Below, one piece after another: positions 2,994 through 61,160 of a DNA stretch of 61,711 nucleotides (position 1 is its first letter; every line of letters starts with the position of its first letter). A program made the position numbers and the translations under genes. The notes below the pieces were generated by a model. That model saw only the letters and a list, made by a program, of their open reading frames with translations, ran no database searches and had not been told where the DNA came from. Source of the stretch: Candidatus Gorgyraea atricola. GTDB taxonomy: Bacteria; Omnitrophota; Gorgyraeia; Gorgyraeales; Gorgyraeaceae. The stretch spans positions 91,465-153,175 of the forward strand of contig JAVCCW010000018.1 of NCBI GenBank assembly GCA_030765235.1, written 5' to 3'.

Positions 2994-4258
2994 TATTCCT
3001 CCTTCTCTCTTTTTATTTTAGCTCCTAATTTTTCTAGCTTTTCTTCGATGTTGTGATATCCCCTGTCTATATGATAGATCCTGGATATCTCTGTCTTTCC
3101 TTTGGCAACCAAGCCCGCGAGTATCAATGCCGCGGACGCGCGAAGATCTGACGCCATTACTGGCGCGCCGCTAAGCCGCGTAGCTCCCTTCACGATCGCG
3201 CTTGGCCCTTCGAGAAATACCTGCGCGCCCATCCTTGCGAGCTCGCTCACGTGCATAAACCTTTCAGGATATATCTTCTCAGTGATGACACTGATGCCCT
3301 TTGTCGCTGTCATAAGCGCCATCATCTGCGCCTGCATATCAGTTGGAAAGCCAGGGTATGGCAGAGTCGCAACATCTACTGGCTTTAAAGAGCGGGACTT
3401 TTTAACGTGCAGACCATCTTTGACACTCGTAACCTTTATCCCAACACTCTTTAATTTATCTACCAAGGCCCCTACATGCTCTATCCTGGCATGCTTTATA
3501 AATATGTCTCCCCCTGTAATAGCGCTCGCTATCATAAAGGTGCCTGCCTCGATCCTGTCGTAAATCACTGAGTGCTCTGCGCCATGAAGCGAGCGTACAC
3601 CATCTATCTCTATGACAGGTGTTCCGTTTCCTTTTATCTTAGCGCCCATCTTAATAAGAAATCTTGCCAGATCATCTATCTCTGGTTCGCATGCAGCGCT
3701 TTCAATCACAGTCTTACCTTTTGCGAGTGTCGCAGCCATCATAAGATTTGCAGTTGCCAGGACACTTGAACCAAAATTTCCACCAAGATACACCCTGCTC
3801 CCTCGAAGCTCTTTCGCATTTGCTACTATATAACCATGTTCGATCTTGATATCAGCTCCTATTGAACGCAACCCTTTTACATGTAAATCAATAGGCCTTG
3901 GACCTATGACGCATCCGCCAGGCATTGAAACTTCTGCATGCTTTAGCTTAGCCAATACAGGGCCAAGCACGCATATAGAAGCCCTCATTGTACTCACCAG
4001 CTTATATGGCGCAGTATAATTGGAATAACCAGCTGGCTCCACTATAACAGTATCGTCTTCCATTGCCACCTTTGCGCCCAGATAACGCATTATCCGAAGC
4101 ATAGTATAGACGTCTCTCAGTGGCGGCACATTTTTTATTATTGATTTTCTGTCTGTTAAAAGTGTTGCTGCCAGAATAGGGAGCGCCGCGTTCTTTGCGC
4201 CGCTTAACTCAACGCTGCCTTTTAACCTTACCCCGCCTTCTACAATAAACTTATCCAT
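2993..4258 (-). CDS. murA: UDP-N-acetylglucosamine 1-carboxyvinyltransferase
   Basis: The 421-aa ORF has the MurA catalytic loop PGGCVIGPRPIDLH and an EPSP-fold repeat pattern. Confidence 0.93.
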   Translation of the reverse strand: MDKFIVEGGVRLKGSVELSGAKNAALPILAATLLTDRKSIIKNVPPLRDVYTMLRIMRYLGAKVAMEDDTVIVEPAGYSNYTAPYKLVSTMRASICVLGPVLAKLKHAEVSMPGGCVIGPRPIDLHVKGLRSIGADIKIEHGYIVANAKELRGSRVYLGGNFGSSVLATANLMMAATLAKGKTVIESAACEPEIDDLARFLIKMGAKIKGNGTPVIEIDGVRSLHGAEHSVIYDRIEAGTFMIASAITGGDIFIKHARIEHVGALVDKLKSVGIKVTSVKDGLHVKKSRSLKPVDVATLPYPGFPTDMQAQMMALMTATKGISVITEKIYPERFMHVSELARMGAQVFLEGPSAIVKGATRLSGAPVMASDLRASAALILAGLVAKGKTEISRIYHIDRGYHNIEEKLEKLGAKIKREKEE

Positions 4259-4902
4259 ACAATCCTATCTATGTCACTAAAGTCCCTTTTTACCCTATAT
4301 ATCCTATATATACTTTTTGCCCCAAATATATCCAATATTGCATCCCTCTGCCCAAAACCTATCTCTAAAAATATAGAGCCCTTCTCTCTTAAATACACTG
4401 GCGCCTCATTCTCTATGCGCCTGTAAAAATCCAAGCCATCCTCTCCGCCATACAGGGCTCTTCTTGGCTCGCAGCGCACCTCTTCCTGCAGCCATTCAAA
4501 ATCAGCCTTTTTTACATACGGCGGGTTGCATACTATTATATCAAATTTCTCTCTTTTTTCCAACGGTAAACCTTTAAAAAGATCGCCTTCGTAAAATGTA
4601 ATGTTCTTCTCAACCTTATGACGCGTAGCATTTTTTCTTGCAATCTCAAGACTTGCCCCTGAAATATCCGTAGCAACGATTTCTGCATCAGGAAGCGCAT
4701 GCGCCAAACTAACAGCAATATTCCCCGACCCAGTACAGAGATCCAACACCCTTGTCCCTTGTCCCCTGCCCCTTGTCCCTTCCAACACCTCCCAAACAAG
4801 CATCTCCGTCTCCGGCCTCGGAATAAACACGTCTTTATTCACGACAAAGTCCAGTCCCATGAAATCAGTACGACCTTCTGTATATTGAATAGGTTCAATC
4901 AT
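4240..4902 (-). CDS. prmC: release factor glutamine N5-methyltransferase, short form lacking the N-terminal helical domain
   Basis: It has the SAM motif VLDLCTGSGNI and the NPPY motif, and sits directly downstream of prfA. It is only 220 aa and carries an in-frame GGGACAAG-type repeat (TRGRGQGTR). Confidence 0.8.
   Translation of the reverse strand: MIEPIQYTEGRTDFMGLDFVVNKDVFIPRPETEMLVWEVLEGTRGRGQGTRVLDLCTGSGNIAVSLAHALPDAEIVATDISGASLEIARKNATRHKVEKNITFYEGDLFKGLPLEKREKFDIIVCNPPYVKKADFEWLQEEVRCEPRRALYGGEDGLDFYRRIENEAPVYLREKGSIFLEIGFGQRDAILDIFGAKSIYRIYRVKRDFSDIDRIVWISLL
4742..4789 (-). repeat. GGGACAAG-type repeat (30 nt) flanked by a 9-bp direct duplication, in frame in prmC
   Basis: On the plus strand, tccaacacc (4742-4750), then cttgtcccttgtcccctgccccttgtccct, then tccaacacc (4781-4789). 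It encodes VLE-GTRGRGQGTR-VLD. Confidence 0.85.
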
Positions 4903-4916
4903 GTCATGTCGAGTAA

Positions 4917-4955
4917 GGCGAAACCTCCGTCATGTTATGTGGCGGAGGTTTCGCC
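4917..4955. repeat. 13-bp-stem palindrome spanning the prfA stop / prmC upstream junction
   Basis: The arms ggcgaaacctccg (4917-4929) and cggaggtttcgcc (4943-4955) are perfect complements. The prfA stop codon (4935-4937) is in the loop. Confidence 0.8.
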
Positions 4956-6023
4956 TTGGGCACCCTGTCCCAGTTTTAATTTTCTCTCTGCCTGCAAAAG
5001 CGCGTCTATGATCTCGTCTATCTCACCTTCCATTACCCTGTCCAGCTTGTGAATCGTAAATCCTATCCTGTGGTCAGTCACGCGCCTATCTGGAAAATTA
5101 TACGTCCGTATCTTTTCGCTGCGATCGCCTGTGCCTACCTGGTTTTTTCTATCGCTTGCTGTCTTTTTTTGCTGTTCCCGCCGCAGATTATCAAGCACCC
5201 TCGCTTTAAGCACCTTCATTGCGGCGGCCTTGTTTTTGTGTTGAGATCGCTCATTCTGACATTGCACCACTGTCCCGGTCGGGATATGCGTGATCCTTAC
5301 AGCAGAATCCGTGACATTCACATGCTGACCTCCTGCGCCACCCGCACGATAAGTATCTATCTTCAAATCCTGCGGATTTATCTGCATATCCACATCCTCT
5401 GCTTCAGGCAAGACAGCCACAGTTACGGCAGAGGTATGTATCCTGCCAGAAGACTCAGTGGTAGGAACGCGCTGCACTCTGTGCGCTCCCTTTTCATGCT
5501 TTAATTTTTTATAGACATTCTTTCCTTTTATGGAAAATATTACTTCCTTGAAGCCTCCAGCCTCTGCAATGTGGCTATCCATCACCTCTATCTTCCAGCC
5601 AGCCTTTACAGCATGCTTGGAATACATTCTGAAAAGATCTCCCGCGAATAACGATGCCTCCGCGCCTCCTGTGCCTGCCCTTATCTCCATAATGACGTCT
5701 TTAGCGGCATCTACATCCTCATCCAGGATCATCTCTTCGAGCTTGAGTTGCAATCCACCCTTCTTCTTTTTCAGCTCGCTGATCTCCTTCTTTGCCATGT
5801 CAATAAGCTCAGCATGCGACTCTTTTTCCAAAAGCCTCTCTGTGTCGCTTATCTCAGCAAGGATCTTCTTGTATTCTTTGTATTTCGCTACGGTATCTTC
5901 CAGGGACGCAAGTTCCTTGGCAAGCTTCTGATATCTCTCCCTGTCAGAAACCACCCCACTATCCATCATAAAACCATGGATCTCTTCATAGCGTTTTAGC
6001 TGAGCATCAAATTTCTCAAACAT
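4935..6023 (-). CDS. prfA: peptide chain release factor 1
   Basis: It has the GGQ motif (AGGAGGQHVN) and RVQRVPTTESSGRIHTS. The last codons and the stop lie inside a 13-bp-stem palindrome. Confidence 0.93.
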   Translation of the reverse strand: MFEKFDAQLKRYEEIHGFMMDSGVVSDRERYQKLAKELASLEDTVAKYKEYKKILAEISDTERLLEKESHAELIDMAKKEISELKKKKGGLQLKLEEMILDEDVDAAKDVIMEIRAGTGGAEASLFAGDLFRMYSKHAVKAGWKIEVMDSHIAEAGGFKEVIFSIKGKNVYKKLKHEKGAHRVQRVPTTESSGRIHTSAVTVAVLPEAEDVDMQINPQDLKIDTYRAGGAGGQHVNVTDSAVRITHIPTGTVVQCQNERSQHKNKAAAMKVLKARVLDNLRREQQKKTASDRKNQVGTGDRSEKIRTYNFPDRRVTDHRIGFTIHKLDRVMEGEIDEIIDALLQAERKLKLGQGAQGETSAT

Positions 6024-7504: not shown

Positions 7505-8047
7505 TCACACTCCTAATTGTTTCCAGATCTTCCTGACCTGGGATAGTGTTTTTTTCTTCGATCCGCTATTATCTATGGTAAAGTCTGCAAGCGTCAGCTT
7601 TTTTTTTAAACTCGCCTGCATCCTTATTCTCTGTAAGCTGTCCTTTTTCCTTGAGTCGGCTTTGACAACGATTATTTTGTCCATATTTTTATAAAAATCA
7701 CTCTCTATCAGAAGCGCGGCATCCACAACAATCTTTCTCTTTTTATTTCTTCGAATTATTTTATTTATTTCTTTTATCGCAGATGGATGTACTAATTTAT
7801 TCAATAGATCCAATCTCGATCTATTACTAAACACGATCTCTGCAAGCCTGTGCCTGTGGATATTCTTTCTCGCATCAAGTATGCCTGCTCCGAAATGCTT
7901 AATGATCTTTTTGTACACTTGTTTAGGGCGCTCCATCAGGGAATGGCAAACCCTGTCAGCGTCGATCACAAAGGCGCCGCACCTCGCAAACATCTTTGCA
8001 ACAGTACTCTTGCCGCTGCCATAATTACCCGTGATTCCTATTAACAT
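7505..8047 (-). CDS. coaE: dephospho-CoA kinase
   Basis: [16 protein letters not shown]-loop at the N-terminus. The ATG at 8047 is preferred over the GTG-initiated extension to 8077 that overlaps polA. Confidence 0.85.
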
Positions 8048-10770
8048 TCTTCCATCTCCAGCCAATTCTTCCCGCACTTCACTGTTACCTTTACAGGCAC
8101 GCGCAATTTTACAGCTCCCTCCATCTTTGTGCGGATAAGCTCCTTCATTGTCTCAAGCTCTTTCTTCGGCGCCTCGAACACCAGTTCATCATGCACCTGG
8201 AGCGTCATCACAGAAGAGAGTTTTTGCTTTTTTATTTCCTTGTGAATATCTATCATTGCGATCTTTATAAGGTCAGCTGCTGAGCCCTGTACAGGCGCAT
8301 TGATCGCTATCCTCTCAGCCTGCTGCTGTTCTCTGGCGCCGCCTGTATTTATCTCAGGGATATATCTTCGTCTGTTAAAAAGCGTTGTTACGTACCCTAT
8401 ATCCCTGGCGCTCTCGATCGTATCCTCCATATAAGTCTTTACGCGCGGATATCTCTCGAAATATGCGTCTATAAACTGTTGTGCGCTTGCCGGATCAATA
8501 GAAAGGCCTCGAGACAAACCAAACGCGCTAATACCATAGACAATACCAAAGTTTACTGTCTTGGCATTCGAACGCATCTCAGGGGTAACGCCCTTTTCAT
8601 CTACGTCAAAGATCAGGGACGCGGTATGCGTGTGTACATCTATGTCTTTTTCAAATGCGTCTACCAGCTCCTCGTCGCCTGATAAATGCGCCAGGATCCT
8701 CAGTTCGATCTGCGAGTAATCCGCTGCCACGATATATCTATCTTTTTCTCCAATAAACGCCTTTCTGATTCTTCTACCCTGCTCTGTCTTAATAGGTATA
8801 TTTTGCAGGTTTGGCTTACTGGAAGAAAGCCTGCCTGTAGCTGTAACTGTTTGATTAAACGACGTGTGAAGCCTCCCTGTTTTTTTATTTATAAGTTCGG
8901 GCAGCGCGTCTATATATGTTGATTTCAGCTTTGACAGTTCTCTATACAGCAAAAGTTCTTTTGGTAATGGATGCACGCTCGATAATCTCTCCAATACACC
9001 TACATCCGTTGAAAAGCCTGTCTTTGTCTTTTTTATCACTGGCAGTTCCAGCTGCTCAAACAGGATCTTGCTCAGCTGCTTTGGTGAATTTATATTAAAT
9101 TCACCCCCTGCCATTTTATAAATATTTTTTACTGTGTCAGCTAAAATCGCCTCTACCTCTTTTGATTCCTTCTTTAATAAGGCAGTGTCTATCTTTACGC
9201 CATTTCTCTCTATCTGCGACAGCACTTCTACCAAAGGCATCTCTATATCATTAAAAAGGCTGGACAGTTCCTTTTTGAAAAGCTCTTTTTCTAAGATCTG
9301 TTTCAGTCTCAACGTAACATCGCTATCCTCGCAGGAATATTCAGAAAGGCTATCCAGGGGCACCTCGTCCATGTTTATCTTTTTTTTGCCAGAGCCTAAA
9401 AGATCTGTCATTGATATCATCTTGTGGTCAAGGTATTCAAATGCAATGTCATCGAGATTATGATTAAGCTTTGAAGGATTTAATAAATACGACGCGATCA
9501 TCGTATCGAACTCGATCCCCTTAAGCTCTATACCCTGCATTGCCAGGATAAGCTTTTCATACTTGATATTTTGCCCGATCTTTTTTATCTTTTCGTCCTC
9601 TAGGATTGGTTTCAGAGCACTAAACGCATACGCCATCCCAACCCCTTGTCCCTTGTCCCTTGCCTGCCCCGTACGAAATCTTTGATTTTCGTATGGGGTC
9701 CCTTGTCCCTTCGCTAACGCCACATAGTATGCCTTGCCTGGTTCCCAGCAAAACGAAACACCAAGTGGCCTTGCCTGCAAAGGATCCTCGCCTGTAGTTT
9801 CGAAGTCTAAGACAAACGAATCCTGCTTCTTCAATTTTTTCACAAGCTCATCAAATTTGGCCTTATTGGTTATGGTCTCGTAGCTGGCCTCTTGCCGCAC
9901 CTGAGAATCTTGAGACGAAAACTCTTTTGCAAAGGCCTTGAATTCCAGGTCTTTAAAGATACCCAAAAGTCTTTGTGTATCAGGTTCACTCAAGCGCATG
10001 GATTCTTCGTCTATATCTATAGGCACAGCGCTATCCAGGATAGCCAGCTCCTTTGACATGTGAGCGCTCTCTTCGCCGTCCTTTAAAGTCTTTCTTTTTG
10101 AATCGCTTTTTATCTTATCAAGATTCTTGTAGAGCATGCCTATATCACCAAACTCCTTTATTAAATCAATGGCTGTCTTTTCGCCTATGCCGTGCACGCC
10201 TGGTATGTTATCTGTCTGGTCCCCTGCAAGCGCCATAAGATCCACGATACTCTCAGGCCCCAGGCCGGAAAACCTCTCTTCCACCTTTTTTCTATCATAA
10301 ATAAGGCCTTCCTTATGCGTGGAACATATCTTTATATTCTCGCTTACGAACTGCAACATATCTTTATCGCCAGTCATTACGTAGGTCATTATGTCTTTTT
10401 TTGAAACCTTTTTGGCGATCGTGGCAAGGATATCATCTGCCTCAAAGCCCTGTTTTTCAAATATCGGAATATTATACGCCGATACTACCTCTTTTATGAG
10501 CGCCATCTGCGAGACAAGGTCATCTGGCATGGGTTTTCGCGTTATCTTATAATCCTTGAATTTCTTATGCCTGAATGTCGGGCCTTTTAGATCAAAGGCT
10601 ATAGCGAGATAATCCGGTTTTTCGCTAGCGAGCAACTTTTTGAGCATCAACACAAATCCGTAGACCGCGTTTGTCGGCATGCCCTTCGAGTTTCTGAGCT
10701 CTTTTATGGCATAAAAAGCCCTGTAACAATAAGAATTTCCATCAATCAAAAATAATTTCTTCTTTTTCAT
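8041..10770 (-). CDS. polA: DNA polymerase I
   Basis: The 909-aa ORF has a 5'-nuclease domain, an exonuclease-like domain and family A polymerase motifs (ADYSQIELRILAH, QVHDELVFE). It contains the in-frame 67-nt repeat element. Confidence 0.93.
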   Translation of the reverse strand: MKKKKLFLIDGNSYCYRAFYAIKELRNSKGMPTNAVYGFVLMLKKLLASEKPDYLAIAFDLKGPTFRHKKFKDYKITRKPMPDDLVSQMALIKEVVSAYNIPIFEKQGFEADDILATIAKKVSKKDIMTYVMTGDKDMLQFVSENIKICSTHKEGLIYDRKKVEERFSGLGPESIVDLMALAGDQTDNIPGVHGIGEKTAIDLIKEFGDIGMLYKNLDKIKSDSKRKTLKDGEESAHMSKELAILDSAVPIDIDEESMRLSEPDTQRLLGIFKDLEFKAFAKEFSSQDSQVRQEASYETITNKAKFDELVKKLKKQDSFVLDFETTGEDPLQARPLGVSFCWEPGKAYYVALAKGQGTPYENQRFRTGQARDKGQGVGMAYAFSALKPILEDEKIKKIGQNIKYEKLILAMQGIELKGIEFDTMIASYLLNPSKLNHNLDDIAFEYLDHKMISMTDLLGSGKKKINMDEVPLDSLSEYSCEDSDVTLRLKQILEKELFKKELSSLFNDIEMPLVEVLSQIERNGVKIDTALLKKESKEVEAILADTVKNIYKMAGGEFNINSPKQLSKILFEQLELPVIKKTKTGFSTDVGVLERLSSVHPLPKELLLYRELSKLKSTYIDALPELINKKTGRLHTSFNQTVTATGRLSSSKPNLQNIPIKTEQGRRIRKAFIGEKDRYIVAADYSQIELRILAHLSGDEELVDAFEKDIDVHTHTASLIFDVDEKGVTPEMRSNAKTVNFGIVYGISAFGLSRGLSIDPASAQQFIDAYFERYPRVKTYMEDTIESARDIGYVTTLFNRRRYIPEINTGGAREQQQAERIAINAPVQGSAADLIKIAMIDIHKEIKKQKLSSVMTLQVHDELVFEAPKKELETMKELIRTKMEGAVKLRVPVKVTVKCGKNWLEMEEC
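9645..9711 (-). repeat. 67-nt GGGACAAG/hairpin element, copy A (in frame in polA)
   Basis: It is 66/67 identical to 24059-24125. It has an internal 12-bp hairpin, ccccgtacgaaa (9667-9678) / tttcgtatgggg (9687-9698), flanked by cccttgtccctt direct repeats. Confidence 0.9.
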
Positions 10771-12069: not shown

Positions 12070-13530
12070 CTATTTTATACTTTTGGAAAAATATCCTCCA
12101 GTCATGGCGTCCAGATCTGCAGTGAGTTCTTCTACGCGAAGCGCGCTTTCCATTTTATTCTTTATGTCAGTTGGCGGTGAAAGCTCAAGCTCTATCTGCA
12201 ACCTGCGACGCTCAAAATATGTCCTAGTGATCTCGTCAAGTACATCATCCCTTAGCTGCACCATGAGCTTTGATCTTATGTCTATTGTAGTCTGGTTAGG
12301 ATTCCAGATGATTTCGCCAAGGTCCCATTTAGCAGAAACACCCCAGTCGTGCGGGCCTGTGTAATACCTATCTGCTCCGCTGTCATAATTTATAGTCTTA
12401 TCATAATCCACTGACACTTCCGGCAATAAAGGCTTCATTCTTGCCCCTCGCCTCCAGTTTTTTATTTTATCCGGATGCACCTCTGCGTATTCAATAGCTG
12501 CTTCCTGGATCTCCCTGATCGTAGGCTCATAGTCAAAATCTTCAAACACATCTCCTTCATCAAAAAAGCCGAGGCTGGGCCTCGGCTTTTTTGTATTATG
12601 CAATCCCTTATCTGTTGCGACCCAGATCCTCTTATTGCTGTCGATTGATAAAGAGTAAGCCTTGTTCGCTGACATGCCTTTATATAGCGCTGTCCAGCTC
12701 TGGTCTTTTTTATTGAAAATAAAAATGCCTTTATCTGTTGCCGCATAAAGATCGTCTTTAAATAAAAGTCTTTTTATCTTTTGGGATAATAATCCGCTGG
12801 ATGGAAACACGCCCCATGTTTCTCCTGTATTGCTGCTTGTAAATATCCCTGAGTCGGTCGCGAGATAAATTTTTCCCTTGTCAATCGCGATGCTATTGAC
12901 TGGTTTAGTTGAAGTCGCCGCATAATCTGCTTCATCGCTGTCATATTCTGACTCTTCTACAGCAGTCACAAATACCCTTTTCCATTTTCCCTCTCTTCCT
13001 TTATATACACCTGTTTCTGCCGCGAGAAAATCATGATCACCTAGAAACGCGACCCACTTTACGCTAAGATCCTGATCTTTTTTCCAAGTTGCGCAATTAT
13101 CACTGCTAATAAAAAGACCTCTTCTTGTCCCAAGATAAATATCGCCATTCCGGGAAAAGGCCACATGCGATACATTATTCTCTTTTGCCCCTACACCTTT
13201 AAACACCTTCTTCCATTTGCTTTTTCCATCAATGCTTTTAAATGCGCCTCTTTCCGTGCACACAAACACTGCCTTTCTTGAAACCGCTACGAAATTAATA
13301 CTATTCCCATCCTCTCTTGCGGTAAATACTACGGTCCAACTCTCACCGCTGTTCTCGCTCCTGTACATCTTCTTCTCAGACGAAGCATAAATAACACCCA
13401 CCTTGGTAGGGTCCACCGCGACCTCTTTCATCTCAGCCTCGCTTATTCCCGTTACTATGTCCCATGCGTGGTCGGCGAATACGCTGGAACAGCACAAAAT
13501 TACCGCCAGTAAAATTAAAACATGCTTCAT
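12070..13530 (-). CDS. secreted Asp-box (BNR-like) beta-propeller repeat protein
   Basis: It has a signal peptide and repeated SxDxGxxW-like motifs (SENSGESW, SIDGKSKW, SSDNCATW, SSNTGETW). A GCCGAGG hairpin repeat is embedded in frame (KKPRPSLGFF). Confidence 0.65.
   Translation of the reverse strand: MKHVLILLAVILCCSSVFADHAWDIVTGISEAEMKEVAVDPTKVGVIYASSEKKMYRSENSGESWTVVFTAREDGNSINFVAVSRKAVFVCTERGAFKSIDGKSKWKKVFKGVGAKENNVSHVAFSRNGDIYLGTRRGLFISSDNCATWKKDQDLSVKWVAFLGDHDFLAAETGVYKGREGKWKRVFVTAVEESEYDSDEADYAATSTKPVNSIAIDKGKIYLATDSGIFTSSNTGETWGVFPSSGLLSQKIKRLLFKDDLYAATDKGIFIFNKKDQSWTALYKGMSANKAYSLSIDSNKRIWVATDKGLHNTKKPRPSLGFFDEGDVFEDFDYEPTIREIQEAAIEYAEVHPDKIKNWRRGARMKPLLPEVSVDYDKTINYDSGADRYYTGPHDWGVSAKWDLGEIIWNPNQTTIDIRSKLMVQLRDDVLDEITRTYFERRRLQIELELSPPTDIKNKMESALRVEELTADLDAMTGGYFSKSIK
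12562..12592. repeat. GCCGAGG-family hairpin (A6-stem-loop-T6) inside the Asp-box protein CDS
   Basis: The sequence is aaaaaa gccgaggc tgg gcctcggc tttttt. It has the shape of a perfect bidirectional terminator but is read through in frame as KKPRPSLGFF. Confidence 0.85.
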
Positions 13531-13620: not shown

Positions 13621-13667
13621 GCATAAACGGGTCACAAAATAATGCCTGAGAGACAGACCAACCCCTT

Positions 13668-13706
13668 AACTTTATACTTTTGTGACACACAGAAAAGTAT
13701 AAAGTT
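13668..13706 (-). terminator. stem-loop at the end of the receiver gene; carries the conserved 30-nt motif shared with 16861-16890
   Basis: aactttatactttt (13668-13681) pairs perfectly with aaaagtataaagtt (13693-13706). It overlaps the stop codon at 13705-13707. No clear U-tract follows on the transcribed strand, so terminator function is inferred. Confidence 0.5.
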
Positions 13707-14073
13707 AAAGGAGTTGCTTTAGAATTTTTGGGATGACGTTGTTTTCTAGGTTTTCTAGGCTGAAGGGTTTGGTGATGTAATCAGCTGCTCCTGATTCTTT
13801 TGCTAGGTCCATTACTACTTTTTCATCAACGCCTGTCATCATAATGACCTTGATATTCTTATCGATTTCTTTTATCTGCTGTAAAACCTTTATCCCTGAT
13901 GGCCCAGGCATTCTTATATCTAAGAGCACTATGCTTGGCCGCTTTTCTTTTACTATAGCTAAAGCACTCTTCCCTTCATTGGCTACAAAGACTTCGTAAT
14001 CTCTCTTGCTAAAAAAGTTTTGCAGGTAATCACTGGTTGGGAGATCATCATCAACTATTAATAATTTAACCAT
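13705..14073 (-). CDS. stand-alone response regulator receiver (CheY-like)
   Basis: It has the receiver signature IVDDD, LLDIRMPG, IMMTG and ITKPF. There is no output domain. Confidence 0.85.
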   Translation of the reverse strand: MVKLLIVDDDLPTSDYLQNFFSKRDYEVFVANEGKSALAIVKEKRPSIVLLDIRMPGPSGIKVLQQIKEIDKNIKVIMMTGVDEKVVMDLAKESGAADYITKPFSLENLENNVIPKILKQLL

Positions 14074-16857: not shown

Positions 16858-16890
16858 CTTAACTTTACATTTTTGTGACACACAGAAAAG
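16858..16890 (-). repeat. second copy of the cttaacttta..ttttgtgacacacagaaaag motif
   Basis: It is identical at 31 of 33 nt to 13665-13697. It lies between the GT2 stop and the -35 of the cassette promoter. Confidence 0.8.
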
Positions 16891-16898
16891 CTGTAGCT

Positions 16899-18566: not shown

Positions 18567-18598
18567 AACTCACCTTTCTTCAGCGTATTTCCGCGTCT

Positions 18599-18670
18599 CA
18601 ACTTTACTTGGCAAGGCTGGACCTCGGCTTTTTTAAAAAAGCCGAGGTCCAGCCTTGCCAAGTAAAGTTG
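18599..18670. repeat. 72-bp perfect palindrome of the GCCGAGG family (gspE-gspG spacer)
   Basis: The 36-nt arm caactttacttggcaaggctggacctcggctttttt and its exact reverse complement abut at 18634/18635. TTCCGCG boxes flank it at 18589, 18674 and 18684. Confidence 0.9.
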
Positions 18671-18691
18671 AGCTTCCGCGGGGTTCCGCGA

Positions 18692-23388: not shown

Positions 23389-23805
23389 TTACACAACCTT
23401 TCTCAATACATAAAGTGCGGCCAGGGCAATAGCGGTTGTTACATATCCTGCTACATAAAAACCGCAGCCAACTGCCAGGCCTATACCTGCAACAGTCCAT
23501 AAACTCGCTGCTGTTGTAAGGCCCATAACAGATGCGCCCGAACGTATAATCGTGCCTGCGCCTAAAAATCCAATGCCTGTCAGCACCCCAGCAGCTATCC
23601 TTGCCGGATCTGCAGTACCAACACTGCCATACGTCATGGCTATATACAAAGAGGTCAACATGACAAGTGCAGACCCAACGCAAACAAGTATATGCGTCCT
23701 GAACCCGGCAATTTTTTTATTGTGCTTCTCCCTCTCGATACCGACTAAACCACCCAACAGCGCAGCCAACCCCAATCTCACAATCACCTGCATATCTGTA
23801 ATCAT
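23389..23805 (-). CDS. mgtC: MgtC/SapB-family membrane protein
   Basis: RLGLAALLGGLVGIEREKHNKKIAGFRTHILV is the MgtC N-terminal membrane domain signature. Confidence 0.8.
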   Translation of the reverse strand: MITDMQVIVRLGLAALLGGLVGIEREKHNKKIAGFRTHILVCVGSALVMLTSLYIAMTYGSVGTADPARIAAGVLTGIGFLGAGTIIRSGASVMGLTTAASLWTVAGIGLAVGCGFYVAGYVTTAIALAALYVLRKVV

Positions 23806-24788
23806 ACACGCCCTCCTAACCTGTATGCCAGGCCTGCTACCATTGCAGCATTATCTGAGCATAATTGTAGCGGCGGAAAAAAGACCTTAAGGCTTCTAAA
23901 CATCGCCTCTCTCGCAATCATCTCCCTAAATCGAGAATTAGCGCTTACTCCTCCGCCGATGACAAGTGTTTTTAAGTTATGTTTCTCGAGCGCCTTGATA
24001 GTATTATTAACAATAACCTTAAGCGCTGCTTCCTGAAAACTAGCAGCTATATCCTCTTCTTGTCCCTTGTCTCTTGCCTGCCCCGTACGAAATCTTTGAT
24101 TTTCGTATGGGGTCCCTTGTCCCTTAACATAATACAAAACTGCAGTCTTAATTCCACTAAAGCTAAAATCAAGGCCGCCTTTAATTGGCCTACATGTAAA
24201 CTTTATGGCTTTTGCATCGCCTTTTTTCGCGAGCCTGTCTATTATAGGTCCACCTGGATATCCTAATCCTAGAATCTTCGCCACCTTATCATATGCCTCG
24301 CCAATTGCATCATCTAAAGTGTCACCGAGCGTTGTAAAACTGTCAAAGCCCTCCACAAGACAAAGCCTCGTGTGCCCGCCAGATATGATAAGCCCGATAA
24401 AAGGAAACCTCGGCGCATCCTTGCACATCAATGCAGAATAGATGTGAGCCTTAAGATGATCCACAGCAATAAACTCTACACCTAATGCATAAGACAATGC
24501 CTTTGCGCATGAAATTCCACATAGAAGCGCTCCCACGAGCCCAGGCCCTTGTGTCACAGCCACAGCATCCACATCATTTATCTTCAGGCCAGCATTATTC
24601 AAAGAGCGATTTACTACCTTGTCTATATTCTCTACGTGATGCCTTGTTGCGATCTCAGGCACTACACCGCCGAACCTCTTATGCTGTTTCAAGCTCGACG
24701 AAACTACATTGGATAAAATCTTTATGCCATTTTCTACTACACTCGCGGCTGTCTCGTCACAGGAAGTCTCGATGCCTAAAATCAACAT
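23802..24788 (-). CDS. tsaD: tRNA N6-adenosine threonylcarbamoyltransferase
   Basis: MLILGIETSCDETAASVV, GGVVPEIATRHH and GPGLVGALL give the Kae1/TsaD pattern. It contains the in-frame 67-nt repeat element. Confidence 0.92.
   Translation of the reverse strand: MLILGIETSCDETAASVVENGIKILSNVVSSSLKQHKRFGGVVPEIATRHHVENIDKVVNRSLNNAGLKINDVDAVAVTQGPGLVGALLCGISCAKALSYALGVEFIAVDHLKAHIYSALMCKDAPRFPFIGLIISGGHTRLCLVEGFDSFTTLGDTLDDAIGEAYDKVAKILGLGYPGGPIIDRLAKKGDAKAIKFTCRPIKGGLDFSFSGIKTAVLYYVKGQGTPYENQRFRTGQARDKGQEEDIAASFQEAALKVIVNNTIKALEKHNLKTLVIGGGVSANSRFREMIAREAMFRSLKVFFPPLQLCSDNAAMVAGLAYRLGGRV
24059..24125 (-). repeat. 67-nt GGGACAAG/hairpin element, copy B (in frame in tsaD)
   Basis: It is 66/67 identical to 9645-9711, in the same orientation and reading frame. 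It encodes KGQGTPYENQRFRTGQARDKGQ. Confidence 0.9.
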
Positions 24789-27529: not shown

Positions 27530-28987
27530 TTATCCAAAAAAGCCGAGGCTGGACCTCGGCTTTTTATTTTTGCCGAGGTCCAGCCTCGGCTTTTTTGTAA
27601 CTTGCTCGTAATTATGCGCTATTCTTAAAATCATCTCTTCGTCAAATGCCTTGCCGAGTATTTGGAGTCCTATGGGCAACTTATTCTTTGTGAATCCGCA
27701 TGGAATCGATATGCCAGGGATGCCAGCTAAATTCGCGGAGATCGTAAATATATCTGAGAGATACATCGTTAGCGGATCTGCTGTTTTTTCGCCTATCTTA
27801 AACGCGGGTGTTGGTGTAGTCGGAGTGACTATGGCATCGTATTTCTTGAACGCGTCCTCAAAATCTTTCTTTATCAATGTCCTGACCTTTAGCGCCCGTA
27901 AATAATATGCATCGTAATAACCGCTGGATAGCGCAAATGTACCTAAGATAATTCTGCGCTTTGCCTCATCGCCAAAACCTTGCGCCCGAGTCTTCTTGTG
28001 CATGTCAATGACTGACTTTGCCTGACTTGCTCTCAGGCCGTACTGCACGCCGTCGAATCGCGCTAGGTTTGAACTTGCCTCAGCTGTTGCCACCACATAA
28101 TACACAGCCACTGCGTATTCTGTGTGCGGCAGGCTTATGTCCTCGCAGATCGCGCCCAGCGACTCAAGTTTCTTTATTGCATCCTGCATGGACTTCTTCA
28201 CCTCAGGGTCTATGCCCTTAATAAAATATTCTTTTGGAATGCCAAGCTTCAGGCCTTTAATATCTTTTTTTATCAATGATGGATAGTCAGGCACGCTCGT
28301 ATCTACAGATGTTGAATCCATAGGGTCATGACCTGATATGATCTTTAAAAGAAGCGCTGCGTCCTCTACATCCTTTGTCAATGGCCCTATCTGATCAAGC
28401 GAAGAACCAAATGCTATAAGCCCGTATCGCGAAACTCGTCCGTATGTTGGTTTTAGACCTACCACTCCGCAAAGCGCAGCAGGCTGTCTGATCGATCCGC
28501 CTGTATCTGAGCCCAGCGCCCATATCGCGCTATCTGCTGCAACAGCTGCCGCAGAACCACCGCTAGAGCCGCCAGGAATGCGCTCCATATCCCACGGATT
28601 CCTTGTAGTGCCATAGCAGGACGTCTCTGTAGAAGAGCCAAATGCAAACTCGTCCATATTGGTCTTGCCCATGAGCACAGCATCTGACTGAAGCAATTTC
28701 TCGATTACTGTAGCATCATAGGGGGGTTTAAATCCTTTTAATATATTCGAAGAGCACGTAGTGAGCTCATCCTTTACACAGATATTGTCTTTGATGAAAA
28801 TCGGCAAACCCTTATGCGTCTTTGCCCTTTCAAGCACCTTCTCTTTATCAAAATTAACTACTGCATTAAGCTTTTTATTCTTTTGTACGACATCTATAAG
28901 ACTATTACATATATCTATATGCGATATGTCGCCTTTATTTAATAATTTAATTAACTCATGCGCAGTAAGTTTATTTAGCTCCATCAT
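27530..28987 (-). CDS. gatA: Asp/Glu-tRNA amidotransferase subunit A
   Basis: It has the amidase signature [12 protein letters not shown]. The last ~22 codons ([21 protein letters not shown]) are encoded by a double GCCGAGG hairpin repeat. Confidence 0.93.
27536..27596. repeat. two tandem GCCGAGG-family hairpins in opposite orientation, forming the 3' end of gatA
   Basis: The sequence is A6-gccgagg-ctgga-cctcggc-T5 a T5-gccgagg-tccag-cctcggc-T6. The loops are reverse complements of each other. Confidence 0.88.
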
Positions 28988-43612: not shown

Positions 43613-43651
43613 TTTTTATCTCCTTAGGTATTCAAAATTCGTCTATCGTTT

Positions 43652-43742
43652 ATCGGTTGCGTAGTTCGAATCGTTGATCGTTATACGGTTGCGTTTTTAC
43701 GATACACGAACAACGATTGCCGTAACGAGTTACGCAACCGAT
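43652..43742. mobile_element. MITE-like element with CGGTTGCGTA terminal inverted repeats, copy 1
   Basis: atcggttgcgta (43652-43663) and tacgcaaccgat (43731-43742) are perfect 12-bp inverted repeats. There is an extra internal tacggttgcgt. It shares a 22-mer with the copy at 61081-61102, in inverted orientation. Confidence 0.6.
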
Positions 43743-45007
43743 CAACGTATAACGAATCTTCTCGGGTCTGTGATTTTTCCTTTAATCGCCGACGCTGCAA
43801 CTGTTGCAGGCGAGGCAAGATATATAAACGCGTCAGGATTGCCCATCCTGCCCTTAAAATTCCTATTCGCTGTTGAGATAACCTTTTCTCCTTTTGATGG
43901 TACTCCATTATGTGTTCCCACGCACGGACCGCATCCAGGCGCAACCACGCACGCGCCTGAAGCAACAAAATCTGAGATAATACCCTTTTTCATTGCCTGC
44001 TTAAATATGGTACTGGAGGCAGGGGCTATTATCATCTTTACATCTTTATGCACGCGCCTTCCTTTAAGAATCGAAACTGCTATTTTCAAATCCTCTAATC
44101 TCCCGTTCGTGCACGTGCCCAAAAATGCCTGATCTATTTTTGTATTCTTTATTTTACTGATAGGTGCAACATTGTCAACTGTATGCGGCTTAGCCACCTG
44201 CGGCGCAATCTTACTAACATCATACTCAATAACCTCAGCATACCTCGCATCTTTATCACTCCTTGTCCCTTGCCCCTTGTTGCTTGTCCCTATAGCTTTA
44301 AGATATCTATACGTCGTCGCATCCGGCTCCATAAGCCCTGCCTTAGCGCCCATCTCAATAGCCATATTAGAAATCGTAAATCTCGCGTCCATGCTGAGTC
44401 TCTTTATGTAATCGCCTGTAAACTCAACTGCCTTATATGTGCAATAACCTGCTCCCAGATCTCCGATTATATACAAGATCACATCTTTGGAATAAACTCC
44501 CTTTTTTGTCTTGCCCTTTAAAATGATCTTAACTGTCTCTGGTATCTTAAACCAATTCTTACCAGAGGCTATTGCTACAGCCAGATCAGTCGAGCCCATT
44601 CCTGTTGAGAACGCGCCCAGCGCGCCATAGGTGCATGTGTGCGAATCAGCGCCTACAACAAGGTCCCCAGGTCCAACAAGCCCTGACTCTGGTATGACCT
44701 GATGACAAACTCCGCACCCTATATCAAACATCTTCACATTCTGTTCCTGCGAAAATTCGCGCATCTTTTTATGGATCTCTGAAACCCCTATATTCGGACT
44801 AGGCGCACTATGATCAATGACCATGCAAAATTTTTTCTTATCAAATACCTTTTTGGCGCCCAATTTTTTAAATGAATCTATAATAAGACTGCTCGTGCCA
44901 TCCTGACCAAAACAGAAATCTACCTTACAGAGGACAGTGTCTCCAGGCCTTACATCCTTATTGCAGTGTGATTTAAATATTTTTTCGGTTATTGTCTTCC
45001 CAGGCAT
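43742..45007 (-). CDS. aconitase-superfamily dehydratase large subunit (LeuC/HacA-like)
   Basis: The 421-aa ORF has Fe-S cluster Cys ligand regions (VGADSHTCTYGALG, GTCTNGR, PGCGPCVG). It carries an in-frame GGGACAAG-type repeat (NKGQGTRSDK). Confidence 0.8.
   Translation of the reverse strand: MPGKTITEKIFKSHCNKDVRPGDTVLCKVDFCFGQDGTSSLIIDSFKKLGAKKVFDKKKFCMVIDHSAPSPNIGVSEIHKKMREFSQEQNVKMFDIGCGVCHQVIPESGLVGPGDLVVGADSHTCTYGALGAFSTGMGSTDLAVAIASGKNWFKIPETVKIILKGKTKKGVYSKDVILYIIGDLGAGYCTYKAVEFTGDYIKRLSMDARFTISNMAIEMGAKAGLMEPDATTYRYLKAIGTSNKGQGTRSDKDARYAEVIEYDVSKIAPQVAKPHTVDNVAPISKIKNTKIDQAFLGTCTNGRLEDLKIAVSILKGRRVHKDVKMIIAPASSTIFKQAMKKGIISDFVASGACVVAPGCGPCVGTHNGVPSKGEKVISTANRNFKGRMGNPDAFIYLASPATVAASAIKGKITDPRRFVIR
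44261..44291 (-). repeat. GGGACAAG-type repeat in frame in the dehydratase large subunit
   Basis: The plus strand ccttgtcccttgccccttgttgcttgtccct encodes NKGQGTRSDK. Confidence 0.75.
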
Positions 45008-47778: not shown

Positions 47779-47803
47779 TACTCCTCCTTTTATAAAGTAA
47801 TCC

Positions 47804-47859
47804 AAACTCTAAATCCCAAACTCTAAATCCTAAACTCTAAATCCTAAACTCTAAATCCT
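47804..47859. repeat. four tandem copies of a 14-mer (aaactctaaatcc[c/t])
   Basis: The copies lie at 47804, 47818, 47832 and 47846, in the rpsD-rpoA spacer. Confidence 0.9.
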
Positions 47860-47951
47860 AAACAAACTCAAAACTCCAAATCCCAAACTATACTGTTTTG
47901 AGTTTGTGATTTTGGGTTTTGGATTTGTTTAGAGTTTCGTGTTTAGAGTTT
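47860..47951. repeat. inverted-repeat block related to the 14-mer array
   Basis: acaaactcaaaac (47862-47874) pairs perfectly with gttttgagtttgt (47895-47907). Further tttgggttttgga and tttagagttt segments are complementary to the upstream array. Confidence 0.75.
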
Positions 47952-57814: not shown

Positions 57815-58270
57815 TTATCTCCTTTTGCTTGTAGTAGCCTTTTGTTTTTTAACTGGTGCTTTGGCCTTCCTTGTCACTTGTCCCTTGTCACTTGTCCCTT
57901 TTTTCGCCGCAGCTTTCTCCGTCTTCGCCTCCGGCCTCACAATCTTGCTCAACTCCAGCGTAATATGCGCTGTCCTATGTTTGATCATAGTTGCCCTGCC
58001 CATTGAAGCAGCCCTGAACCTCTTTAGCATCGGCCCCTTGTCTGCCTTTATTAAAGAAATATAAAGATCTGCTGGCAATAGATGCGCCTTTTTATCCGCG
58101 CTATCAATAGCTGAGTTCAAGAGCCTCTTTATGTAAATAGTGGGTCTCTTCTCAATCACATCCAAAAGCAATGACGCCTTTACAACGCCCATACCTTTTA
58201 TAAGATTTGTGACATTGCTCGCTTTTCTTGGCGAAACCCTTAAATATCGCGCTATGACTCTAGTTACCAT
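57815..58270 (-). CDS. rplV: 50S ribosomal protein L22 with basic C-terminal extension
   Basis: The ATG at 58270 gives [17 protein letters not shown]..., matching uL22. The C-terminal tail (about 35 aa) contains a GGGACAAG-type repeat, and the longer track ORF extends into rpsS. Confidence 0.9.
57869..57900 (-). repeat. GGGACAAG-type tandem repeat (2 x cttgtcacttgtccct) in the rplV 3' extension
   Basis: The plus strand ccttgtcacttgtcccttgtcacttgtccctt encodes [13 protein letters not shown]. Confidence 0.8.
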
Positions 58271-60388: not shown

Positions 60389-61043
60389 CTTTTCCCTTGT
60401 CGCTTGTCACTTGTTGCTTGTCCCTGACCAAAAGCCTCTTTTTCGCCGCGCGTATCTCCAGGTACCCATTCTTCGAGCCCGGCACTGCGCCCTTGACCAA
60501 TAATATATTCTTTTCCTTATATACCTTAATGATCTCAAGATTCTGAACTGTCCTTCTCTTGTTGCCCATACGGCCAGGAAGATGTAAACCCTTCCATACC
60601 CTGGAAGGATAAGAGCTGCCTCCTATAGAACCTACTCTTCGATGATGCATTCCACCATGGCTCTTTGGACCGCCAGCCCAACCCCATCGCTTTACACCAC
60701 CTTGAAACCCCTTACCTATAGAAGTGCCTGCTATATCAACAAAATCCTTTTCCTTAAATATATCCACCGTGACTTTCTTACCAACGCTGACACCTTCGCC
60801 AGCATCAAAAGGCAGCTCCTTGACAAAGGCATTTGGTTCTGCATTTGCCTTTTTATATAGACCCTTTTCTGAACGAGAAGTATTCTTTGCCTTTTTCTTG
60901 CCAAACCCAAGCAAGACCTTATTTTCAAGCACATTTAAAACCGTGCAAGGACCTGCCTCTATCACAGTAACAGGTACAAATACCCCATCTTCTGTAAAAA
61001 CCTGCGTCATCCCTAATTTTTTACCTAATAAACCTAGTTTCAT
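60351..61043 (-). CDS. rplC: 50S ribosomal protein L3 with repeat-derived C-terminal extension
   Basis: MKLGLLGKKLGMTQVF... matches uL3. The tail RDKQQVTSDKGKDGTGKEKDKKKG runs through a GGGACAAG-type repeat. Confidence 0.92.
   Translation of the reverse strand: MKLGLLGKKLGMTQVFTEDGVFVPVTVIEAGPCTVLNVLENKVLLGFGKKKAKNTSRSEKGLYKKANAEPNAFVKELPFDAGEGVSVGKKVTVDIFKEKDFVDIAGTSIGKGFQGGVKRWGWAGGPKSHGGMHHRRVGSIGGSSYPSRVWKGLHLPGRMGNKRRTVQNLEIIKVYKEKNILLVKGAVPGSKNGYLEIRAAKKRLLVRDKQQVTSDKGKDGTGKEKDKKKG
60394..60425 (-). repeat. GGGACAAG-type repeat at the rplC/rplD junction
   Basis: The plus strand cccttgtcgcttgtcacttgttgcttgtccct lies just upstream of the rplD ATG (60388). It is read through by rplC as RDKQQVTSDKG. 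Confidence 0.8.
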
Positions 61044-61060
61044 TCTTGTCTTTCGCTATT

Positions 61061-61142
61061 CGGTTGCGTATATCGAAATGTTATACGTTGATCGGTTGCG
61101 TTTTATTACGGTTGACGATCAACGTTTCGATCTACGCAACCG
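61061..61142. mobile_element. MITE-like element with CGGTTGCGTA terminal inverted repeats, copy 2 (rpsJ-rplC spacer)
   Basis: cggttgcgta (61061-61070) and tacgcaaccg (61133-61142) are inverted repeats. There is an internal atcggttgcgt, and the 22-mer gttatacgttgatcggttgcgt is shared with copy 1. Confidence 0.6.
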
Positions 61143-61160
61143 TACAACGTGTACCGAGCA

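Follow-up and report, generated by a model that had tools for sequence, protein, structure and literature searches.

The analysed stretch of DNA (61,711 nucleotides of Candidatus Gorgyraea atricola, hereafter the window) contains the genes for DNA polymerase I (polA) and TsaD, and both genes carry nearly the same 67-nt sequence at positions 9645 to 9711 and 24059 to 24125, respectively. The earlier note had reported this repeat and its twin, and the sequence is as quoted there; the copies are 66/67 identical on the same strand (repeat family D6, 99%), the one differing base being a C to T at 24072 in the tsaD copy. Its claim of a shared orientation, reading frame, and peptide holds as well, with both copies lying in minus-strand genes and being read as KGQGTPYENQRFRTGQARDKGQ, of which the stretch GTPYENQRFRTGQA is encoded by the insert. 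The motif GGGACAAGG is seen 8 times in the window, with 0.34 occurrences expected, and the 32-nt palindrome within the repeat is found in 0 of 100 shuffles versus two occurrences in the window. The features are listed in Table 1.

Table 1. Host genes, 36-nt cores, and heptamer arrays in the window
Feature	Coordinates	Strand	Description
prmC array (gene 4240-4902, minus)	4749..4781	+	4.7 units, in frame, read GTRGRGQGTR
polA, DNA polymerase I, 909 aa	8041..10770	-	NF004397, 1153 bits
Heptamer array, tag side of polA core	9643..9662	+	(CCCTTGT)x2.9, TRF, 100% matches
36-nt core, polA	9663..9698	+	tag CCTG 9663-9666, then 32-nt imperfect palindrome 9667-9698
Heptamer array, other side of polA core	9699..9711	+	TCCCTTGTCCCTT
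tsaD, 328 aa	23802..24788	-	TIGR03723, 408 bits
Heptamer array, tag side of tsaD core	24059..24076	+	one variant unit CTCTTGT
36-nt core, tsaD	24077..24112	+	identical to polA core
Heptamer array, other side of tsaD core	24113..24125	+	
leuC/hacA-family large subunit gene array (gene 43742-45007, minus)	44261..44291	+	in frame, read NKGQGTRSDK
rplV array, ribosomal protein L22 C-terminal tail	57869..57900	+	CTTGTCA/CTTGTCC, beyond family profile end
rplC array, ribosomal protein L3 C-terminal tail	60395..60425	+	CTTGTCG/CTTGTCA/CTTGTTG, beyond family profile end

Judged from sequence comparisons, the 67-mer is a composite of a 36-nt core, CCTG followed by the 32-nt imperfect palindrome CCCCGTACGAAATCTTTGATTTTCGTATGGGG, and a host heptamer array. 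It is not the basic unit, because the tsaD gene of a relative keeps the array without exactly the inner 36 nt and because the core is found in other arrays and in array-free intergenic DNA. Joining the two array pieces around the polA core restores a perfect 33-nt array of 4.7 units in register, and the variant unit in the tsaD array accounts for the sole mismatch between the two copies. The architecture proposed in the earlier note, in which GGGACAAGG direct repeats flank a 12-bp hairpin with one G.T pair, is right for the hairpin, whereas the flanks are pieces of an independently existing array; we therefore rejected them as terminal repeats or target duplications. A 7-bp target duplication was also rejected as the source of the array, since an insertion of 36+7 or 27+7 nt would not preserve the frame and the difference between the tsaD alleles is exactly 36 nt.

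The plus strand, on which the polA core is given, carries the G.T wobble and has the tag on the 5' side; it is antisense to polA. Here, the hairpin has 12 bp with the one G.T pair and an 8-nt loop (DNA, -10.2 kcal/mol, z = -6.2), and the stem can be extended to 14 bp with a bulge. On the gene-sense strand an A.C mismatch takes the place of the G.T pair, so that the hairpin is weaker (-8.1 kcal/mol) than on the tag strand. Across the core family, the tag C[C/A]TG (observed as CCTG, CATG, and, in one copy, CACG) precedes an imperfect palindrome whose outer stem is CCCCGTAC...GTAYGGGG, and the opposite end abuts the host sequence directly. The TTT-loop form, which is that of the window, is stop-free in five of six frames and a GAA-loop variant in all six; the two frames used in the nine genic copies have no stop codon, and frames with a stop are not observed in use. 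Rfam gave no meaningful match, either for the whole window at the gathering threshold or for the locus at E values up to 10, so the hairpin is not a known RNA family.

Both insertion sites are permissive loops according to the structure models, which assign them low confidence. The PolA insert (residues about 354 to 376) lies in the 3'-5' exonuclease domain between Exo I (DFETT) and Exo II (GQNIKYE), a spacing that ranges from 47 to 74 aa across 113 orthologues. The PolA AlphaFold model has a mean pLDDT of 86, and its only long segment below 50 is 356 to 373. In TsaD, for which a sequence look-up found no exact entry, the insert (residues about 223 to 244) lies between two helices, with pLDDT below 50 only at 221 to 239, and this loop is hypervariable across 119 orthologues, showing many different 7-aa-periodic peptides. 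Both sites are gaps in alignments to solved structures, namely, T. maritima TsaD (6nak) and, for PolA, the Klenow fragment (1dpi); the earlier note had proposed to map the site on a Pol I structure. The orthologue alignment proposed with it shows that the closest PolA orthologues (94 to 90% aa identity) are without the segment.

Heptamer arrays without a hairpin outnumber those with one in the window (at least four, in prmC, the leuC-like gene, rplV, and rplC, versus two). The arrays have about 4.3 to 4.7 units (31 to 33 nt), are in frame with the unit GGGACAA in the gene sense (CCCTTGT on the plus strand), and encode a hydrophilic loop of the GQGTRDK type. Different heptamers replace one another at the same site in related lineages; for example, the array that a relative carries at the prmC site is made of TCGATAC.

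The earlier note had called for a search for further copies, and more were found, both in another assembly and in MAGs of other projects. Seven window-type copies lie in seven unrelated genes (polA, tsaD, hisH, tgt, ligA, and genes for an Fe-S protein and a membrane protein), five of them on five independent contigs of one other metagenome, and they use two reading frames, the second of which gives DPIRKSKISYGAG from the same DNA. They are 56-65/66 identical to each other, or 63-65/66 without L005, which has a second hairpin nested in its array, and all seven have 18 to 21 nt of array on one side of the core and 12 to 13 nt on the other. In other Omnitrophota genomes the core is found inside different heptamer arrays and in either orientation, including one reverse-orientation copy inside a YfhO-like gene and two intergenic copies. 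Our census, based on exact-match scans that diverged copies would escape, gave one match per GTDB representative genome and at least seven in the population of the window, with no dimers. Since all genes of the window are on one strand, orientation to the gene is inseparable there from orientation to replication. Selection at the peptide level was rejected, as two frames and two orientations occur among the copies. Together with the orthologues lacking the segment and the gaps relative to solved structures, the second frame bears out the earlier view that a DNA element spread and that protein homology is not the cause.

The alleles of relatives are filled, empty, or otherwise filled. At tsaD, relative L011 (85% nucleotide identity) has (AGGGACA)x4+AG, an array that recurs in the window with exactly 36 nt added. 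In L012 and L013 (88% identity) a different hairpin, likewise CCTG-tagged, occupies this nucleotide of the array, and in L019 the site holds three copies of a shorter CCTG-CCCCGTAC hairpin. Read from these sequences, independent insertion events have taken place at this one tsaD site. The core lies in a CGGATCA array in L018 and in a GTCGTTC array in L001, and in both cases removing 36 nt restores the register. Core insertion is thus clean by this comparison, neither duplicating the target nor removing host bases, and different bases stand 5' of the insertion (CTTG, TTCG, AACC, GGAT, and TCTG). At polA, 57 nt (36 plus 21, i.e., 3x7) are absent from L015 and L017, where only the seed GAGGGACAAGGGG or GAAGGAACAAGGGG is left. 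In an independent parallel case, L020 and L021 polA differ by 48 nt (a 27-nt tagged hairpin plus 21 nt), built on the local seed GGTTCAAGG; variant hairpins are 27 nt long versus 36 nt for the core. The direction of change at polA is ambiguous: an empty allele may be ancestral or may have arisen by in-frame loss of 57 nt.

No transposase, integrase, or HUH enzyme was found with Pfam and NCBIfam among 20 window genes or beside the copies, and no mobilising enzyme in the 61.7-kb window or adjoining any copy (about 190 kb in all). Scanning viral contigs for the core gave no match and hence no sign of a phage vector, and a plasmid blastn search with the 67-mer gave no match either. A protein-database search with three translated frames of the composite yielded 13 candidates and one hit, a 64-aa ORF (P0244) carrying GHGTPYENQRFRTGQARDKG.

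The core resembles several known classes of small repeats. Tetranucleotide-tagged REPs of the GTAG and CGTC families are associated with RAYT transposases (PMC3733652; PMC3116915), and these units are sometimes intragenic, with replication and repair genes and, among species, the PVC bacterium Opitutus terrae as notable cases (PMC3733652). Like the core, REPs are units of 20 to 40 nt with a tetranucleotide at one end and a short imperfect palindrome (stem 5 to 13 bp, loop 2 to 20 nt), dimensions within which the core falls, and their families are species specific and regarded as non-autonomous mobile DNA. REPs number tens to thousands of copies per genome and often form inverted dimers; in the exact-match scans, the core had a low copy number and no head-to-head dimers (REPINs) were seen. 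The core differs from REPs in the tag, which is CCTG or CATG (CACG once) and not GTAG or CGTC, and in the embedding of the units in heptamer arrays. No RAYT was found in the window or beside the copies.

The second close parallel is with the small dispersed repeats (SDRs) of cyanobacteria, which Elhai and colleagues reportedly described in 2008 as 21- to 27-nt elements in hundreds of copies, nested in tandem heptamer repeats (STRR); some are said to have central palindromes and to occur also inside genes. We know of no transposase for them. SDR5 insertion is described as precise (PMC4390886, PMC5861425). The core shares with SDRs a length below 40 nt, precise insertion without target duplication, nesting in heptamer repeats, and occurrence inside genes. 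It differs in phylum, in its apparently unrelated sequence, in its length of 36 nt (27 nt in variants), and in its few copies, nearly all genic ones being in frame in housekeeping genes.

The precedent named in the earlier note, the Rickettsia palindromic elements (RPEs), is a fair functional analogy, although tagged REPs and cyanobacterial SDRs are closer. RPEs of about 100 to 150 bp (RPE-1 type) lie in frame in many unrelated housekeeping genes and are compatible with fold and function (Ogata et al. 2000, summarised in PMC10969869), and short RPEs of the RPE-4/6 type are CGTC tagged (PMC3733652). In-frame insertion into unrelated conserved genes is common to RPEs and the core, whereas the core is set apart by its tag CCTG and by its length (36 nt, or 67 to 69 nt for the composite), and RPEs are without heptamer arrays and occur in Alphaproteobacteria. 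The arrays have counterparts in the GGGNATC repeats of Xanthomonas and Nostoc (PMC4692102) and the TAACTGA repeats of Beggiatoaceae (PMC4679880), which share a genome-specific heptamer at many loci and a preference for about four units; those are mainly intergenic, however, and here the arrays are in frame in conserved genes and host hairpin inserts. A MITE would have terminal inverted repeats and a target-site duplication, whereas the filled and empty tsaD alleles differ by exactly 36 nt without any duplication, and the same is true of L018 and L001. An IS200/IS605-derived, PATE-like element would have two different subterminal hairpins and insert 3' of a fixed tetra- or pentanucleotide, which does not fit the single hairpin and the varying bases 5' of the insertion.

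We consider it probable that the 67-mer is a nested composite, in which a non-autonomous REP/SDR-like mini-element sits in a heptamer array and is tolerated in permissive loops. The arrays probably arise by slippage that extends a short seed three units (21 nt) at a time, which would keep the reading frame. The tetranucleotide-tagged, 36-nt mini-element would then be inserted cleanly into the array. Its survival in essential genes may be due to its length, a multiple of three, to its few or no stops, and to the surface loop being already disordered. Most likely the insert is present in the mRNA and, as we assume, in the protein as an additional loop, and it would be neutral or slightly deleterious. 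New insertions, we infer, would be made from the single-stranded hairpin by a trans-acting HUH/tyrosine-transposase enzyme (RAYT/IS200-like) or, alternatively, by replication template switching. Within one genome, the whole composite may be copied via array homology to sites with the same heptamer or a 9- to 12-nt seed, which would explain the near-identical 67-mers in polA and tsaD. Against this explanation stand the failure to find a mobilising enzyme in the roughly 190 kb covered, the ambiguous direction of change at polA, the low copy number (with almost no protein-database matches to the encoded peptides), unlike that of classical REP or SDR families, and the fixed position of the core in the array, which free insertion does not predict and which fits composite copying or a measured insertion.

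The stereotyped architecture of all seven copies could also mean that mobility belongs to the whole 67- to 69-nt composite alone, as a MITE-like element ending in direct repeats, with the array-only sites and the tsaD allele lacking 36 nt being secondary deletions. The polA relatives that lack the array as well as the core agree with this, as do composites that are 56-65/66 identical (63-65/66 without L005) while the flanking genes differ by 10 to 15% from relatives. We nevertheless regard it as unlikely, given that exactly 36 nt separate the L011 tsaD allele from that of the window, the junctions offering no direct repeat through which a deletion could have occurred, that copies of this core are found within GTCGTTC and CGGATCA arrays as well as in intergenic DNA with no array, that L012 has a different hairpin at the same array position, and that hairpin-free arrays are the more numerous in the window. 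Similarly improbable, and drawn by analogy with the STRR/SDR pair of Nostocales, is the idea that the arrays and the C[C/A]TG-tagged hairpins are two products of one dedicated Omnitrophota DNA-writing system. Such a system would write a lineage-specific heptamer into many seeds of a genome, then add hairpins at a fixed array position, and would repeatedly rewrite the same essential-protein surface loops.

Less likely still, the hairpin and arrays may be kept for a benefit to the host, either as variation of a protein surface loop or as a DNA or RNA structural signal, possibly in replication or translation pausing, in mRNA stability, or as a G-quadruplex formed by (GGGACAA)4. In favour of this, the palindrome hardly varies between genomes with TsaD proteins of only about 74% identity, the same loop still carries arrays across long evolutionary distances, and four-unit G-rich heptamer repeats form quadruplexes in other bacteria (PMC4692102). 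However, the hairpin is found in both orientations to genes and in intergenic DNA, close relatives are without it, the heptamers of many lineages are not G-rich, and no Rfam family matches. Small hairpin inserts can be skipped by the ribosome in programmed translational bypassing, as in T4 gene 60 and the mitochondrial byp elements, and a stable hairpin between identical repeats would here offer possible take-off and landing codons. The length is a multiple of three, though, and none of the nine genic copies has a stop in either of the two frames used, so nothing forces or requires bypass; a mature protein lacking the segment, through bypassing or through its removal from the mRNA, is hence very improbable. 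Least credible of all are an assembly artefact, a local mis-join, or an ancestral protein segment. Repeats are in general prone to mis-assembly in metagenomes, whereas both genes are in frame with full-length family scores, the same structure recurs in another assembly (five independent contigs) and in MAGs of other projects, and orthologues and solved structures are without the segment. A sequencing adapter or other technical artefact was rejected, as the core recurs in independent assemblies, always in frame; to our knowledge, it is unlike the common Illumina, Nextera, or PacBio adapter sequences.

If the nested-composite explanation is correct, mobile or copied DNA of the smallest class (below 40 nt) is not restricted to cyanobacteria, and it is able to settle in essential genes of a phylum that is streamlined and uncultured. 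The finding would place very small selfish DNA within essential genes of an uncultured Omnitrophota bacterium. The matched alleles, filled, empty, and differently filled at tsaD and filled and empty in two polA lineages, provide material for studying how such elements move, a question dating from the description of REPs and SDRs, and the rule of a hairpin of 3n nt plus three heptamers gives a further handle on it. Should the DNA-writing system exist, very small elements would move without a conventional transposon and would be a steady source of new disordered loops. In practical terms, the inserts inflate and diversify loops of the phylogenomic marker proteins PolA, TsaD, L3, and L22, and, in MAGs, they can mislead gene calling, the trimming of alignments, and searches for homologues.

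As a side observation, relatives of about 90% identity differ in the presence or absence of many other small palindromes.

The 67-nt repeat at plus-strand positions 9645-9711 has the sequence given in the earlier note, as checked directly, and the copy at 24059-24125 differs from it by a single base (99% in the repeat finder). Both copies are read in one frame and place the same peptide, KGQGTPYENQRFRTGQARDKGQ, in PolA and in TsaD, and the claimed 12-bp stem with a single G.T pair is present on the plus strand. The finding stands and shows more structure than was first seen, the element being a small tagged palindrome that is nested in heptamer arrays and has spread at the DNA level. The 32-nt palindrome CCCCGTACGAAATCTTTGATTTTCGTATGGGG occurs twice in the window and in none of 100 shuffles, and GGGACAAGG is found eight times, with 0.34 occurrences expected. 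The plus-strand hairpin has a folding energy of -10.2 kcal/mol (z = -6.2); its gene-sense counterpart has an A.C mismatch in place of the G.T pair and folds more weakly.

Positions of the repeat core, its host genes and heptamer arrays, in the window unless a locus from a relative or metagenome contig is named
Feature	Coordinates	Strand	Remark
DNA polymerase I gene (polA)	8041-10770	-	score far over NCBIfam cut-off
TsaD gene (tsaD)	23802-24788	-	score far over NCBIfam cut-off
36-nt core in polA	9663-9698		CCTG + palindrome
36-nt core in tsaD	24077-24112		CCTG + palindrome
Hairpin-free heptamer array, prmC	4749-4781		in frame
Hairpin-free heptamer array, leuC/hacA-family gene	44261-44291		in frame
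Hairpin-free heptamer array, C-terminal tail of L22	57869-57900		in frame
Hairpin-free heptamer array, C-terminal tail of L3	60395-60425		in frame
Threefold 34-nt unit, tsaD of L019	10670-10775		102 nt, in frame
GAA-loop core, L003 (= L006)	12155-12186		intergenic, array-free

The direct repeats, which the earlier note took as the flanking architecture of the element, are instead parts of heptamer arrays: at both copies, Tandem Repeats Finder and the repeat finder identify CCCTTGT as the unit, which is GGGACAA in gene sense. Without the 36 nt, the polA and tsaD sites are perfect in-register arrays of 4.4 to 4.7 units, and hairpin-free arrays exist elsewhere in the window, so the flanks are not the ends of the element. 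Three heptamers make up 21 nt, or seven codons, and yield GQGTRDK-type peptides. In the prmC array (4763-4775), the third unit is CCCCTGC, giving the octamer CCTGCCCC, which is the same as the initial 8 nt of the core (tag plus CCCC) and could be chance or the trace of a lost hairpin; the related locus L015 reads CCCATGT there. The rpsD-rpoA intergenic region (47802-47960) is taken up by a (CCAAACTCTAAATC)x6.5 array and, after it, a GTTTTGA-type array that is roughly inverted, so heptamer-based repeats are also found outside genes. The ribosomal proteins L17 (46175-46789), L22 (57815-58273) and L3 (60351-61043) have long lysine-rich C-terminal extensions past their family profiles, the tails of L22 and L3 being those with heptamer arrays.

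The tsaD alleles of relatives, all written in gene sense, comprise empty, filled and alternatively filled sites. The L011 allele (85% nucleotide identity to the window) is an array without hairpin, gtta(AGGGACA)x4 AG, and the window has the same array plus exactly 36 nt, placed after AGGGACAAGGGA, showing a clean insertion. L012, L013 and L014 (88%) carry another hairpin at the same nucleotide, TCCCTCGACTTCGCTCGGGA and then CAGG, which is the CCTG tag on the opposite strand. With L011 as their outgroup, the window and L012 are most simply explained by an array-only ancestor and two subsequent, independent hairpin insertions. In L018, whose TsaD is 74% identical in amino acids, the insert is again exactly 36 nt, a core with a GAA loop and a perfect palindrome that lies in a CGGATCA array. 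L019 has a shorter relative, CCTG-CCCCGTACCCTTGCGGTACGGGG with one heptamer, as a 34-nt unit in three copies. This unit consists of the heptamer AGAGGAC and a 27-nt CCTG-tagged hairpin; its copies are read in three different frames, and three copies restore the frame by the same logic as for heptamers. The same arrays have thus been struck repeatedly and independently by hairpins. Across 119 TsaD orthologues the insert loop is hypervariable, many having 7-aa periodic peptides of varied sequence (KDQRPKT, NHESRIT, RQETRDK, GHGTRDA and others) and several having hairpin-type peptides. The 43-aa loop of the orthologue P0012, from VLYY to ASFQE, seemingly contains three hairpin-type peptides in series (PLDFARDR, TPYHSLRSGMGQ, PSASLGTG), suggesting multiple nested insertions.

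The comparison of PolA with its orthologues, which the earlier note had proposed, shows the nearest ones (94%, 93% and 90% amino acid identity) to be 19 aa shorter. The polA DNA of L015 and L017 has 57 nt (36 + 21) fewer, with only GAGGGACAAGGGG / GAAGGAACAAGGGG at the site; the element probably postdates the split from relatives with ~90% identity. The L020 site reads GGTTCAA GGTTCAA [CCCCATACCACAAGGGTACGGGG CATG] GGTTGAA GGTTCAA GG, and L021 (84% nucleotide identity to L020) has GGTTCAAGG, a difference of 48 nt (27 + 21). This pair is an independent parallel, in another lineage, to the window versus L015 and L017, and the repeated pattern is a tagged hairpin of 3n length plus three heptamers on a local seed. 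Among 113 PolA orthologues, Exo I and Exo II are 47 to 74 aa apart, and the window, with 72, is one of those with the widest spacing.

Further copies were also found. An exact-pattern scan over one genome per species placed the core in three further Omnitrophota MAGs and one MAG labelled Planctomycetia. In L001 it lies in a GTCGTTC array inside the gene of an RluD-type pseudouridine synthase; in L004, in a YfhO-like gene, oriented in sense; and in L002, in array-free intergenic DNA. The Planctomycetia-labelled copy (L003, identical to L006), beside a nucleotidyltransferase/HEPN gene pair, points either to spread past Omnitrophota or to a fault in binning or labelling. A metagenome scan gave five further window-type array-core-array composites on Ga0075122 contigs, in hisH, tgt, ligA, an Fe-S protein gene and a membrane protein gene, four of the five being read in a different frame, as GTRDPIRKSKISYGAGKGQGTR, and one in the frame of polA and tsaD. 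The seven composites are identical at 56-65 of 66 positions pairwise, or 63-65 leaving out L005, which has a second hairpin nested inside, and in all seven the core is flanked by 18-21 nt of array next to CCTG and by 12-13 nt at its opposite end. Membership of the family rests on the tag C[C/A]TG together with the outer stem CCCCGTAC...GTAYGGGG; the inner sequence varies, giving the variants A, A', B and B'. The same niches are occupied by a second family (TCCCGAGCGAAGTCGAGGGA), whose members also often have the CCTG tag. Its hairpins, at L015 ~7460, L017 250-269, L018 5412-5431, L001 4036-4055 and L005 284-303, have a loop near the stable GCGAAGC mini-hairpin motif and occur in several Omnitrophota genomes, in and between genes.

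Copies in two frames, two orientations and intergenic DNA rule out protein homology as the source of the shared peptide and bear out the spread of a DNA element. An ancestral protein segment is ruled out by relatives and solved structures without the insert, the polA and tsaD sites being gaps against the Klenow fragment (1dpi and others) and Thermotoga maritima TsaD (6nak), respectively. An assembly artefact or mis-join is likewise ruled out, because independent assemblies repeat the element, always in frame. The best TsaD and PolA matches are Candidatus Omnitrophota/Omnitrophica MAGs, and housekeeping DNA, all co-oriented and with a GC skew of about -0.2, makes up the whole 61.7 kb.

The element sits in disordered loops. 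In the PolA model (mean pLDDT 86), the only long low-confidence segment is residues 356-373, between a strand (346-353) and a helix (379-390) of high confidence; the TsaD model is weaker (mean 70), with the insert again in coil (pLDDT <50). The design is frame-neutral: on direct translation, five of six frames of the TTT-loop core are stop-free, and the sixth has TGA in the loop, a frame in which no TTT-loop core was observed. The GAA-loop variant is open in this frame, which L018 uses (PVRNRRFSYG).

Small non-autonomous palindromic repeats inside genes are already known; unusual here are the nesting in in-frame heptamer arrays, the new tag, the new phylum and the occurrence of clear empty, filled and otherwise filled alleles. 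Cyanobacterial small dispersed repeats (SDRs), which nest in heptamer repeats and insert precisely, are close to the element. Passages of two studies describe their insertion as precise (PMC4390886, PMC5861425). The Rickettsia palindromic elements, named as the closest precedent, are functionally alike as in-frame palindromes in housekeeping genes (PMC10969869), but the element fails their size, and tetranucleotide-tagged REPs are structurally closer (PMC3733652). Such REPs are occasionally intragenic, including in replication/repair genes and a PVC bacterium (PMC3733652), although the element has neither the GTAG nor the CGTC tag; unlike MITEs, it has no target duplication. Heptamer repeats that prefer four units are known from other bacteria, mainly between genes (PMC4692102, PMC4679880), whereas those here are in frame within genes. 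Literature searches found no description of such repeats in Omnitrophota.

For the copying mechanism, we infer that arrays would extend by slippage in 21-nt steps out of 9-13-nt seeds. New hairpin insertions may make use of the single-stranded hairpin and either template switching or an HUH/Y1-type enzyme acting in trans, the route suggested for REPs (PMC3733652, PMC3116915). No mobile-element gene was found in the 61.7-kb window, and no REP-associated tyrosine transposase in the window or the genes next to copies. Within one genome, array homology may copy the composite to sites with the same heptamer or seed, which would explain the constant core position, the 57-nt polA difference and the reuse of one heptamer per genome; extrapolated to an assumed 2-Mb genome, about 10 chance occurrences of a 9-nt seed are expected. 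The proposed mechanism does not account for the wholesale swap of one heptamer for another at a site between lineages, as at prmC, which has a GGGACAA array in the window and TCGATAC in L017.

The window holds other palindromes and repeats. Long near-perfect palindromes built on AAAAAAGCCGAGGTCCAGCCTCGGCTTTTTT (600-650, 12548-12596, 18595-18674, 27533-27599, 61496-61573) all lie between genes and look like bidirectional terminators; they vary in presence among close relatives, the window having 59 nt more than L012 at ~18696, and a 93-nt copy of this type is found in L017 only. The intergenic palindromic repeat ACTTTATACTTTTCTGTGTGTCACAAAAGTATAAAGTT occurs at 13663-13711, as a 38-nt insertion relative to L015, and at 16858-16896. 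The prfA-prmC spacer (4914-4958) has a palindrome with a 21-bp stem that is absent from L015 and L017, one more small hairpin presence/absence difference. A repeat of ~57 nt, which contains CGGTTGCGT motifs and has inverted symmetry within it, lies upstream of the leuC-like gene (43634-43760) and of rplC (61048-61149) and could be a regulatory or repeat element shared by both.
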